Origin: an uncultured Nitrososphaerota archaeon
GTDB lineage: Archaea > Asgardarchaeota > Njordarchaeia > Njordarchaeales > Panguiarchaeaceae
NCBI GenBank assembly: GCA_964636085.1
Contig: CAZWPQ010000011.1
Location: 1-23,937 of the forward strand
DNA length: 23,937 nucleotides
Direction: 5' to 3'
Position numbers and translations under genes: made by a program. The notes under the pieces were generated by a model. It was not told the DNA's origin. It saw only the letters and a program-made list of their open reading frames with translations, and did not search any database. This document shows, one piece after another, positions 273 through 3,992 of the stretch. How positions within the stretch are numbered: position 1 is the stretch's first letter; every line of letters begins with the position of its first letter.

Positions 273-1466
273 ATGTGGATACTGTCATGCATGGCTGGTT
301 TTGTCGCGATATCTGATGATGGAAAAGTATTGGATAAAAGTCTCTACGGAGAGCGACCAGATGTTGATTTGGCTGTTGAGAATATTAGAAAACTTGAGGC
401 GGGGGAGTGTCCACAACAGTTAAAGGACTTAATCGAAAGGTTATCGCCGGATAAGATAAAGACTGATAGCGAAGTACTATTTCAAATAATTAGGAAATCA
501 TTTCCAAAGCAATCAATCGAACTTGTGACTAGTGGACATGAGTTACAATTGGCCAGAGAAGCTGTGTGGAATTTTTTGGTGGAGGTATTTGGGGATTATG
601 GAAAGTACATAGAATTTGCTAATGACGTCTCGCTAAACTTATTAAAGTTTAAGCTGAGGGAAGTGGGCGGAGAGCCAGATAAGATGATAATACAAGCAAT
701 TACACTAATAGAGGAACTTACAGAATCCATAAACGCCTTTATGGCCCACCTCAGAGAGTGGTATGGCATTGTCTTTCCAGATCTTGGAAAATTGATTGAT
801 GACCATAAACTTTACGCCGAAATAGTCGCGAAGATAGGCGGGCCGGAGAGTATTACGAGGGAATCACTTCTGGAGATAATTAGAAACGAGAAAAAAGTGG
901 ACGAGATAATCAATGCATTAGAGTCATCGGTACTAGTAAAGATAACTGCAGAAGATGAAAAGCAGATTAAAAGCGTAGCTGGATTGATCCTACAAATGTA
1001 TGATCTTAGAGACAGACTAGAGGAATATCTAAAAAACCTTATGGAGGATACATGTCCAAACATAACAGCCCTAGTCGGCCCAACAATAGGAGCCAAGCTA
1101 ATAAGAAAGGCGGGGGGTCTTCGTCAACTGGCTATTAAGCCAGCATCAACAATCCAGGTACTAGGAGCAGAAAAAGCATTGTTTAGGGCTCTAAGGGGGA
1201 GAGGGACTCCACCAAAGCACGGTATAATATTCGTTCACCCTCTGATCTTTAGGGCTCCATGGTGGCAAAGAGGAAAAATAGCTAGAGCGCTTGCAACAAA
1301 GTTGTCAATCGCGGCAAGAGTGGACTATTTTAGTAAGGAATATATCGGTGATGAACTCAAAAATGAGTTAATGCTGAGGGTAGAGGAAATAAGAAGGAAA
1401 TATCCAAAACCACCTCCAGAAAAAATAAAGAAGAAAAGAAGAAAAACTAAGAGAAAGAAAAGATAG
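273..1466 (+). CDS. nop5: Box C/D sRNP protein Nop5 (Nop56/Nop58 homologue)
   Basis: LREWYG..FPDL coiled-coil region; Nop domain PNITALVGPTIGAKLI..AGGL..LA..PASTIQVLGAEKALF and PPKHGIIF.HP; RGKIARALATKLSIAARVDYF; Lys/Arg-rich C-terminal tail. Confidence 0.97.
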   Translation: MWILSCMAGFVAISDDGKVLDKSLYGERPDVDLAVENIRKLEAGECPQQLKDLIERLSPDKIKTDSEVLFQIIRKSFPKQSIELVTSGHELQLAREAVWNFLVEVFGDYGKYIEFANDVSLNLLKFKLREVGGEPDKMIIQAITLIEELTESINAFMAHLREWYGIVFPDLGKLIDDHKLYAEIVAKIGGPESITRESLLEIIRNEKKVDEIINALESSVLVKITAEDEKQIKSVAGLILQMYDLRDRLEEYLKNLMEDTCPNITALVGPTIGAKLIRKAGGLRQLAIKPASTIQVLGAEKALFRALRGRGTPPKHGIIFVHPLIFRAPWWQRGKIARALATKLSIAARVDYFSKEYIGDELKNELMLRVEEIRRKYPKPPPEKIKKKRRKTKRKKR

Positions 1467-1532: not shown

Positions 1533-1591
1533 TAATCAGCTACCACCAGGGCTCATCATTCTCTCAGCCTGGGACGGCGACATCATCTCAA
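1533..1591 (-). ncRNA. Box C/D methylation-guide-type sRNA (C, D', C', D boxes)
   Basis: The minus strand reads ATGATGT (C, 1586-1580), 12-nt CGCCGTCCCAGG, CTGA (D', 1567-1564), GAGA, ATGATGA (C', 1559-1553), 13-nt GCCCTGGTGGTAG, CTGA (D, 1539-1536). It is a GC-rich island in an AT-rich spacer, with a minus-strand TATA TTTAAATA at 1622-1615. Confidence 0.88.
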
Positions 1592-1614
1592 GCATAATAA
1601 TCTTTTTTACATTA

Positions 1615-1624
1615 TATTTAAAGC
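1615..1624. promoter_or_regulatory. Putative bidirectional TATA element for the sRNA (-) and nfo (+)
   Basis: TATTTAAAGC reads TTTAAATA on the minus strand about 24 nt before the predicted sRNA 5' end, and TTTAAA on the plus strand about 22 nt before the ATG at 1644. Confidence 0.5.
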
Positions 1625-1643
1625 AAGTAGTTCAGTGACGAAT

Positions 1644-2660
1644 ATGCCGAAAAAAGGAAAGAAAAAGAAAAGGCCCAAACGAGCAAAGAAGACACGTAAG
1701 AGGTCTACCAAGAAGAAAGTTACCCCGAGGGTGAAGAAGAAGAGGAAGGTAGAAAAGAAGCCTAAGATACCGAAGGATGTTGAGAGACTTCTACCACTTG
1801 TGGTTCCCGAAGGTTTTCAACTAAAATTTGGACCAGCAGGTAGACCTACAGTATACTCTGGATCTGTGGAGGAGGCACCAGTATTCATACGAGATGAGCT
1901 TTCCCTGGACGCTTACGAGGTACAGCAATCTAGGAAAATAACATTGGATAAAACACGCTCAGAGATTTTGGGTGCAAACGCGCAATCAAAGAATATAGTA
2001 TTGTCGGTTCATGCACCATACGCGGTCAACCTATTAAGTCAAGACAAGGAAAAAATTAAAGCTAGTGTTGATAGGCTTATACAATGCTCGAGAATAGCTC
2101 ATTGGTGTGGTGCCCGCATAGTTGTCTTTCACCCTGGCTATTATGGTGGTCTAGAGCCATGCAAAGCGGTTGAGACAATTATAGAAAATCTGATGCCAGT
2201 AGTGGATGCAATAAAGAGTGAGAATCTCAAGGTTTACTTAGGACCAGAAACCATGGGGAAGCTATCTCAATTCGGCACAGTGGATGAGCTTGTCGAGGTT
2301 GCGAAGGCTTTTCCTCAGGTCAAAATAGTTTTTGATGTGGCTCATATCCACGCTAGAGAGCATGGTAGTTTAATGGATTATAGTAGCTACGATAAACTCT
2401 TCAGTAGGGTAGAATCGGAACTCGGTTCTAAGTGCCTCAGGGAATTGCATATCCATTATACAGAGGTTGAATATGGAGACAAGGGGGAGATTCGTCATCT
2501 CGTGCTTGGCGCGGGTGCAGGACCAGCGCTCGATCCATTGCTTGAATGGCTAATAAATAATGATGTTAAGGCCGTTATAATCTCGGAGAGCCCCATATTG
2601 GAGATTGATGCCATAAGAATGAAACATCGAGCCATTGAAATTTATAAAAGACACAAATGA
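1644..2660 (+). CDS. nfo: Archaeal endonuclease IV (AP endonuclease 2 family, TIM barrel) with a Lys/Arg-rich N-terminal extension
   Basis: Metal-ligand motifs SVHAPY, VFHPG, GPETMGK, FDVAHIHA, LHIH, GEIRH and ISESP; FGPAG at the domain start. ATG 1644 is preferred over GTG 1635. Confidence 0.9.
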   Translation: MPKKGKKKKRPKRAKKTRKRSTKKKVTPRVKKKRKVEKKPKIPKDVERLLPLVVPEGFQLKFGPAGRPTVYSGSVEEAPVFIRDELSLDAYEVQQSRKITLDKTRSEILGANAQSKNIVLSVHAPYAVNLLSQDKEKIKASVDRLIQCSRIAHWCGARIVVFHPGYYGGLEPCKAVETIIENLMPVVDAIKSENLKVYLGPETMGKLSQFGTVDELVEVAKAFPQVKIVFDVAHIHAREHGSLMDYSSYDKLFSRVESELGSKCLRELHIHYTEVEYGDKGEIRHLVLGAGAGPALDPLLEWLINNDVKAVIISESPILEIDAIRMKHRAIEIYKRHK

Positions 2661-2782
2661 TAGAAGCATCTCATGGAATAACTCCAGTGTAGAAGTGTAA
2701 ATGTGTATCTCCAGTATATGGTTACTCTAAATATTGAATTTCATATTTTTCTACACAAGACCCCAATTTTTTGGTGACGATT

Positions 2783-3244
2783 ATGCGCATTGAGGAGGAC
2801 ATGAATAATGTTCTGAGGATACTTAGGGGTCTCAGAAGGGTCTCAGCCTGTCCAAAGAATATTGATGTTCCATGCATATTTTGTCTCGAATGCGATAAAT
2901 GTGATTATGATGAGAAGGGGTACGAGGATGGGCTAATAAAAACAACAGCAAACTCCGTCCTAATAAATCTGAAGATCGATGTTGGGGAGAGCGAGCTGGA
3001 TAAGGCATTATTGATGGAACTTGTAAAGGCGTTCTCTGGTAGGCTAAGCTTCGTGATGGAGAAGCCAGAAGAGGGATATCAAATAAGCTTTTTCTTCTTC
3101 TACACGGACAAAGATGCGATTCCACTATTTGAGAGATTCATCATGGATGTGCTCCCACAGATACATGGGATCCTCACCCAAGGGAGGATAAACGTAAGAA
3201 ATTGGGCAAGATCGGTAGTGCAAAAATTGTTCCCTAAGATGTAG
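2783..3244 (+). CDS. ARPC4-like (Arp2/3 complex subunit 4) eukaryotic signature protein with a Cys-rich insert
   Basis: By-eye match to human ARPC4: IKTTANSVLINLKI vs IEGSINSVRVSIAV; KPEEGYQISFFF vs KPVEGYDISFLI; INVRNWARSVVQKLF vs LSVNARARIVAEEFL. The length is similar. SD GGTGA at 2773-2777 precedes ATG 2783. Confidence 0.8.
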   Translation: MRIEEDMNNVLRILRGLRRVSACPKNIDVPCIFCLECDKCDYDEKGYEDGLIKTTANSVLINLKIDVGESELDKALLMELVKAFSGRLSFVMEKPEEGYQISFFFFYTDKDAIPLFERFIMDVLPQIHGILTQGRINVRNWARSVVQKLFPKM

Positions 3245-3296: not shown

Positions 3297-3992
3297 ATGA
3301 AGATCGTCAAGCGCGAGAAAATTTTCGAAGGGGTCTATATATTAACCGACGATATAGGAACGGAGAGACTGGCGACTATTAATTTAACACCAGGCCACAA
3401 TGTTTATGGCGAGAGACTCCTGCATTTCGAGGGGAGAGAGTATAGGGAATGGGTGCCATATAGATCCAAACTAGCAGCCGCAATAAAGAATGGTCTATCA
3501 GATATTCGTATCGCCCCTGGCCACAGAATTTTATACCTCGGCATAGCGTCGGGCACAACATCATCACATATTTCCGATGTAATAGGGCCCAGTGGGATTA
3601 TCTATGGTATAGAATTTGCCCCAAGACCAATGAGGGATCTAATAAGAGTGGCAAAAGTAAGAAGGAATATAGTTCCATTACTCAAGGACGCCCGGAAACC
3701 TTATGAATACTCTTATATGATTGGTGAGAATGTGGATGGGATCTACTGCGATGTGGCGCAACCCGACCAAGCCGATATATTTATTAGAAACTGCGAGATG
3801 TTTCTGAGGCCAGATGGATATGGATTCATAGCGATAAAGGCTAGATCCATAGATGTGGCTAGATCCCCAGAAGAAATATTTAGAGAACAGAGAAAGATAC
3901 TAGAAACAAGAGGATTTAAAATATTGGAGGAAATCCGATTAGATCCGTATGCAAAGGATCATGTAATGTTTGTGGGTGTATGGAAGGAATAG
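3297..3992 (+). CDS. flpA: Fibrillarin-like rRNA/tRNA 2'-O-methyltransferase
   Basis: NLTPG..VYGE, YREW.PYRSKLAAAI, LYLG.ASGTT.SH.SD, DVAQPDQ, IKARSIDV and LDPY.KDH motifs. Confidence 0.97.
   Translation: MKIVKREKIFEGVYILTDDIGTERLATINLTPGHNVYGERLLHFEGREYREWVPYRSKLAAAIKNGLSDIRIAPGHRILYLGIASGTTSSHISDVIGPSGIIYGIEFAPRPMRDLIRVAKVRRNIVPLLKDARKPYEYSYMIGENVDGIYCDVAQPDQADIFIRNCEMFLRPDGYGFIAIKARSIDVARSPEEIFREQRKILETRGFKILEEIRLDPYAKDHVMFVGVWKE

Follow-up and report, generated by a model that had tools for sequence, protein, structure and literature searches.

A conserved box C/D guide RNA beside nop5 in a Njordarchaeales genome, with a predicted target in the 23S rRNA P-loop

Introduction

The P-loop of helix 80 in 23S rRNA contains a guanosine, G2251 in Escherichia coli, whose immediate neighbours base-pair with the CCA end of the P-site tRNA; in yeast, where the equivalent nucleotide is Gm2619 of 25S rRNA, the guide is snR67. 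The 2'-O-methyl group at this position is universally conserved, being introduced by RlmB in E. coli and with the guidance of snoRNAs in yeast (Gm2619) and in human 28S rRNA (Gm4196) (PMC7600485). RlmB of bacteria and MRM1/Pet56 of mitochondria yield the same Gm2251 product (PMC7600485, PMC12123411) but, unlike the system considered here, are stand-alone SPOUT protein enzymes that use no guide RNA. The eukaryotic route parallels the locus described below: a box C/D RNA modifies the same nucleotide, and its protein partners are fibrillarin/Nop1, Nop56/58 and a member of the L7Ae family (PMC7600485). The eukaryotic snoRNAs themselves are longer, have degenerate C' and D' boxes and are often encoded in introns.

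For archaea, Dennis et al., 2015 predicted that sRNAs guide the methylation of G2520 (alignment numbering), which corresponds to E. coli G2251, in three organisms (PMC4644070), the guides being Pyrobaculum calidifontis sR36, Thermoproteus tenax sR7 and Methanopyrus kandleri sR13 (PMC4644070, Additional file 1). A guide for this site is recognised by complementarity to 23S CUGGGGCGG with N+5 on its second G, as is seen for the D' guide reported here. The D guide of P. calidifontis sR36, AAAGCCGUCCCAGU followed by CUGA, carries the core found in the present RNA; indeed, the stretch GCCGUCCCAGU, again ahead of CUGA, is identical in every letter to the core of our D' guide. In P. calidifontis sR36 and T. 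tenax sR7 the P-loop guide stands at box D, whereas here it stands at box D', and their partner D' guide is directed to helix 81, 24-26 nt further downstream (G2546 or U2544), whereas the partner guide here has no detectable target. The three organisms belong to phyla other than that of the archaeon studied here, and shared ancestry of the guides cannot be told from convergence on an invariant target. Guides for the G2251 site have already been published for other archaea, and the sRNA described in this work is an ordinary new example of them. In the searchable literature we found no account of box C/D sRNAs from Asgard-group archaea.

Results

A complete box C/D sRNA on the minus strand

The window analysed is a stretch of 23,937 nt from a Njordarchaeales MAG (2.41 Mb in 102 contigs, 83% complete, 39% G+C; hereafter G000). 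A first-pass annotation of the window had proposed an unannotated, complete C-guide-D'-C'-guide-D sRNA with its own TATA-like element at 1533-1591. We read the same layout on the minus strand, from 1590 to 1533, as 5'-UGA G AUGAUGU CGCCGUCCCAGG CUGA GAGAA UGAUGA GCCCUGGUGGUAG CUGA UUA-3', and the arithmetic behind the proposed coordinates, guide lengths and N+5 target strings is correct. The parts of the RNA are the following.

1533-1590, minus strand: whole box C/D sRNA, about 58 nt, delimited by the sequence and a full-length RF00095 alignment
1580-1586, minus strand: box C, AUGAUGU, which agrees with RUGAUGA at six of seven positions, the sole deviation being the last (U)
1568-1579, minus strand: D' guide, CGCCGUCCCAGG, 12 nt, predicted to pair with the 23S P-loop
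1564-1567, minus strand: box D', CUGA, invariant in the alignment of homologues
1553-1563, minus strand: k-loop spacer GAGAA (1563-1559) and box C', UGAUGA (1558-1553)
1540-1552, minus strand: D guide, GCCCUGGUGGUAG, 13 nt, orphan in our searches
1536-1539, minus strand: box D, CUGA

The terminal stem consists of 3 bp between the 5' UGA (1590-1588) and UUA (1535-1533), and G1587 forms a 1-nt bulge that is part of the k-turn bulge and is drawn in the same way by the RF00095 model. Box C retains the GA, U and G with which it forms the k-turn together with box D. Archaeal box C/D sRNAs are recognised by C and D boxes with a terminal stem, D' and C' boxes with a short loop, and spacers of about 12 nt, all of which are seen here (the spacers being 12 and 13 nt), and by at least one guide with at least 8 bp to rRNA or tRNA and a plausible N+5 site, which the D' guide provides.

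In gathering mode, no Rfam family matched the window. In E-value mode, model positions 1-58 of RF00095 (snoPyro_CD), a model trained on Pyrococcus, aligned with 1533-1590 (32.3 bits, E 3.7e-5 in a 321-nt stretch), and box C/D families accounted for 14 of the 17 matches listed. As the score lies below the RF00095 gathering score of 45, we do not file the RNA under that family. Since no family reaches its gathering score, automatic annotation based on Rfam would miss the sRNA, which is consistent with its having been called unannotated.

Conservation in relatives

All five genomes of the genus carry the sRNA. Beyond these, the pattern box C, 3 nt, CCG(U/C)CCCAG, 1 nt, CUGA was found in nine of 400 genomes of the phylum, and its reversed control in none. 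The core CCG(U/C)CCCAG is invariant in ten homologues from at least four families. In the alignment of these ten sequences the boxes and the D' core are kept while the loop, the flanks and the D guide drift; the spacer between D' and C' varies in both sequence and length, with C' itself retained. Box C reads AUGAUG in nine of the ten and AGGAUG in G001, a genome of the same genus, and its seventh position may be U, C, G or A. A lack of box conservation in relatives had been named at the outset as grounds for abandoning the sRNA; the boxes are intact in relatives. We also considered, and rejected, loss of the sRNA from G001, where it is present with box C AGGAUGA and had been missed by BLAST with a 76-nt query.

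These data bear on whether the boxes could be a chance or decayed motif with no functional RNA behind it, as might be supposed from scores below the Rfam gathering thresholds, an imperfect box C and one guide without a target. A regular expression for the strict box C/D layout matched ten loci in the MAG but none in each of five block-shuffled genomes. Furthermore, retention of the boxes and the D' core in ten genomes with drifting loops and flanks, and a conserved TATA-like element at promoter distance (see below), argue against chance, and we regard this explanation as extremely unlikely. Judged by its sequence, minus-strand 1590 to 1533 is a real, conserved archaeal box C/D guide RNA.

The nine other strict-layout loci of G000 lie at C1:153995, C3:48667, C4:93498, C5:10945, C6:27369, C10:39535, C15:23323, C31:806 and C34:14375. 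Roughly half of the guides in these loci find a good site in G001 rRNA, for example at 1915, 2616 and 2624 of 23S and at 8, 49 and 471 of 16S (G001 numbering).

The D' guide and the 23S P-loop

A search of the MAG with RF01959 and RF02540 found no assembled rRNA, and the 16S and 23S rRNAs of relatives, including G001, were therefore used as surrogates. The two rRNA genes of G001, 23S on the plus strand and 16S on the minus strand, converge at a distance of about 830 bp (C11:390761-396110; L031, L042) and do not form a 16S-23S operon.

The two target strings first proposed, perfect complements of the guides, could not be upheld: searched exactly and with two mismatches, they gave only the antisense of the sRNA itself and noise in the genome and in the rRNA of relatives. 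A search for perfect complements misses the P-loop because the pairing includes a G·U and leaves guide ends unpaired. In a wobble-aware scan, the D' guide formed 10 contiguous pairs, nine Watson-Crick and one G·U, with GCUGGGGCGGCA of the P-loop in every relative 23S examined, both ends of the guide of G000 remaining unpaired. In G001 the site lies at L031 7120-7131, and it is the best D' guide duplex across the whole 23S rRNA (-22.7 kcal/mol, RNAduplex). Since CUGGGGCGG occupies 2248-2256 in rrlH of E. coli MG1655, N+5 from box D' is G2251, in the P-loop of helix 80. The N+5 nucleotide and its neighbours on either side all form Watson-Crick pairs, and the G·U lies two positions from N+5.

Numbering from a second E. 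coli sequence, NZ_AP027616.1, was discarded for that of MG1655 rrlH, as it lacks E. coli 23S landmarks. This entry (L055; plasmid pLR-72_4, 2911 bp) is annotated as 23S, has neither the E. coli 23S 5' end nor the sarcin-ricin loop string, and was the only match in the E. coli collection to the archaeal P-loop region (blastn); it is probably foreign or mis-assembled rRNA.

For G000 taken by itself the P-loop match is not statistically strong, since among 1000 shuffled versions of this G+C-rich guide 161 equalled its 10-bp match somewhere in the 4.5 kb of rRNA. In G002 the ends of the guide pair as well, giving 12 bp and a score reached by 17 of 1000 shuffles, and in G003 a U-to-C change in the core turns the G·U into a G-C pair. 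Given that the core is conserved, that the changes among homologues preserve pairing, that N+5 falls exactly on a universal 2'-O-methylation site, and that a published guide has an identical core, we are fairly confident in predicting that the D' guide steers fibrillarin to 2'-O-methylate the equivalent of E. coli G2251.

A real C/D sRNP could also pair with the P-loop mainly to fold or shield helix 80 during ribosome assembly, with little, no or context-dependent methylation. Such a role would suit a duplex limited to 10 bp, with a G·U close to the target nucleotide and unpaired ends, and Lui et al., 2018 contend that guides which are weakened or orphan may still have a part in the folding of rRNA (PMC6009581); in addition, E. 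coli without Gm2251 is almost free of phenotype (PMC7600485). However, N+5, flanked by Watson-Crick pairs, coincides precisely with a nucleotide whose methylation is shared by all domains of life, and the 10 bp of the duplex exceed the 8-bp minimum of archaeal target calls (PMC6009581). We consider it unlikely that folding is the main role, and guided methylation at the G2251 equivalent is the reading we prefer.

The physiological target of the D' guide might instead be a tRNA. The anticodon loop CCUGGGGCG of tRNA-Pro(GGG) (C21:32674-32748) has CUGGGGCG in common with the 23S P-loop region, and as a result the D' guide also forms nine contiguous pairs with this tRNA, eight Watson-Crick and one G·U. 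By our reading of the loop, N+5 would then be the middle anticodon nucleotide, G35, which suggests that the match is probably incidental; to our knowledge, 2'-O-methylation has not been described at G35 of tRNA-Pro(GGG). The P-loop duplex is also the longer of the two, and published guides of the same sequence were assigned to 23S rRNA. It is thus very improbable that tRNA-Pro(GGG) is the true target, and we retain the P-loop.

The D guide

The D guide gave no target among tRNAs and their flanks. A wobble-aware scan of the genome returned 182 matches against 104 for a reversed-guide control, which we take as noise, and in the same-genus genomes match counts equalled the control. Against the 16S and 23S rRNAs of G001 the best pairing was 9 bp with two G·U, equalled by 83% of shuffled guides. 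As a calibration, about half of 20 guides from the ten strict candidates scored at least 9.5 points in G001 rRNA, a level reached by at most 25 of 200 shuffles; the surrogate rRNA therefore works, and the D guide belongs to the half without a target. Two sites near the P-loop, one in helix 75 (5' strand) and one in helix 81 (3' strand), were considered and rejected. The D guides of G000 and G001 formed no usable duplex with 2301-2480 of G001 23S, and the helix 81 sequences of 11 relatives showed no fit to the D guide.

Two types of D guide occur within the genus, and guides beyond it are unrelated. Type A, GCCCUGGUGGUA(G/U), is found in G000, G002 and G003, which keep 12-13 of 13 positions while differing in loops and flanks; this conservation makes a target in their unassembled rRNA possible. 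Type B, (A/U)CCCUGAGGUAU, is found in G001 and G004, and the G001 copy has no good site in the rRNA of G001 itself, where rRNA and sRNA share one 410-kb contig. Orphans constitute 28% of guides in Pyrobaculum (PMC6009581). The D guide of G000 is either such an orphan or aims at an RNA missing from the assembly, for example the MAG's own rRNA.

Three sites in G000 (C1:70094-70106, C1:178856-178868 and C1:154265-154277) read GCCCCGGUGGUGU, two of them being the 5' ends of aragorn tRNA calls. Read in the same sense, this string is similar to the D guide GCCCUGGUGGUAG, of which it is not the complement, and we treat the resemblance as coincidence.

Promoter-like element and gene neighbourhood

The surroundings of the sRNA include the genes of two of its presumptive protein partners.

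273-1466, plus strand: nop5 (Nop56/58 homologue; Pfam Nop PF01798, E 1.9e-66), convergent with the sRNA
1613-1622, minus strand: TATA-like element TTTAAATATA, near-palindromic, read from the sequence
1635-2660, plus strand: endonuclease IV-type gene (Pfam AP_endonuc_2, E 1.1e-30), divergent from the sRNA
2771-3244, plus strand: ARPC4-like ORF of 157 aa (weak match to Pfam ARPC4, an Arp2/3 subunit, E 2.6e-4, below cut-off)
3297-3992, plus strand: flpA (fibrillarin; Pfam Fibrillarin PF01269, E 2.6e-95)

The order in G000 is thus nop5 (+), sRNA (-), endonuclease IV (+), ARPC4-like (+), flpA (+). The sRNA indeed lies downstream of nop5 on the opposite strand, the two being convergent with the nop5 stop at 1466. 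Its reported position between nop5 and flpA is right in the broad sense only: the gene that follows on the plus strand is the endonuclease IV-type gene, not flpA, and both this gene and the ARPC4-like ORF intervene before flpA is reached at 3297-3992. Two L7Ae-family genes are located elsewhere in the genome, on C24 and C1, and together with nop5 and flpA in the window they complete the set of RNP proteins. The endonuclease IV-type protein has a very Lys/Arg-rich N-terminal extension of about 45 aa, its Pfam domain starting from residue 93.

The centre of TTTAAATATA is about 27 nt upstream of the sRNA 5' end (1590), a spacing typical of archaeal TATA boxes and their start sites; on its other side, the endonuclease IV ATG at 1645 is about 28 nt away. 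Among homologues, an A/T-rich TATA-like box precedes box C by about 26-36 nt in seven of nine, G004 and G007 having none. The sRNA and the endonuclease IV gene are divergent in both G000 and G003, about 45-55 nt apart with one near-palindromic TATA-like box midway; in G003 about 46 nt separate the genes, and the box reads TTTTTATAAA. The TATA-like box may act as a promoter in both directions, the endonuclease IV mRNA then being leaderless. In G000 the sRNA appears to be transcribed independently, on the strand opposite to nop5.

Each of the five genomes of the genus has the sRNA beside the flpA/nop5 cluster, inversions notwithstanding, in differing arrangements. In G003 the order is nop5 forward, endonuclease IV reverse, sRNA forward, flpA reverse. 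In G002 the sRNA shares its strand with the ARPC4-like gene and flpA and precedes them by about 55 nt, and in G001 and G004 a single strand again carries ARPC4-like gene, flpA and sRNA. About 10 nt separate the flpA stop codon from box C of the sRNA in G004, and a T6 run follows the sRNA on its 3' side; the G004 sRNA looks like part of the flpA 3'UTR, co-transcribed with the fibrillarin mRNA. The ARPC4-like ORF adjoins flpA in G001, G002 and G004, and the G003 copy lies about 3 kb from flpA, beyond nop5. For homologues outside the genus, neither nop5 nor flpA was found within 1.5 kb of the sRNA.

Discussion

Based on these observations and on the mechanism established for the family, we propose the following model. 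The C/D and C'/D' boxes would fold into a k-turn and a k-loop, which would bind L7Ae, Nop5 and fibrillarin. The D' guide would then pair over 10 contiguous bp with the helix 80 P-loop of nascent 23S rRNA, and fibrillarin is predicted, by the N+5 rule, to 2'-O-methylate the guanosine equivalent to E. coli G2251.

The linkage of the sRNA to flpA and nop5 invites a functional explanation, in which output of the guide RNA would be coupled to output of its own RNP proteins. We regard such coupling as improbable, and genus-level synteny alone could suffice to account for the linkage. In eukaryotes, the NOP56 and NOP58 genes host snoRNAs; there, as here, genes for RNP proteins are linked with a guide RNA of the same RNP. 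In contrast to those host genes, the archaeal locus has no introns, the sRNA of G000 lies on the strand opposite to nop5 and flpA, behind a promoter-like element of its own, and the linkage was seen within one genus only; the comparison remains an analogy. If coupling did prove true, the locus would represent a prokaryotic forerunner of NOP56/NOP58-hosted snoRNAs, in an archaeal lineage that is discussed as near to the eukaryotes.

There is also a lesson for annotation, as Rfam gathering thresholds overlook this sRNA and searches for perfect complements overlook its target. The analysis adds one well-supported guide RNA with a predicted target to the almost unannotated set of non-coding RNAs of Njordarchaeales. 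RNA-guided methylation of the P-loop guanosine is now predicted for this lineage, as it is for Thermoproteales, Methanopyrus and eukaryotes, and the guide fits an old archaeal core of guided sites rather than a lineage-specific invention.
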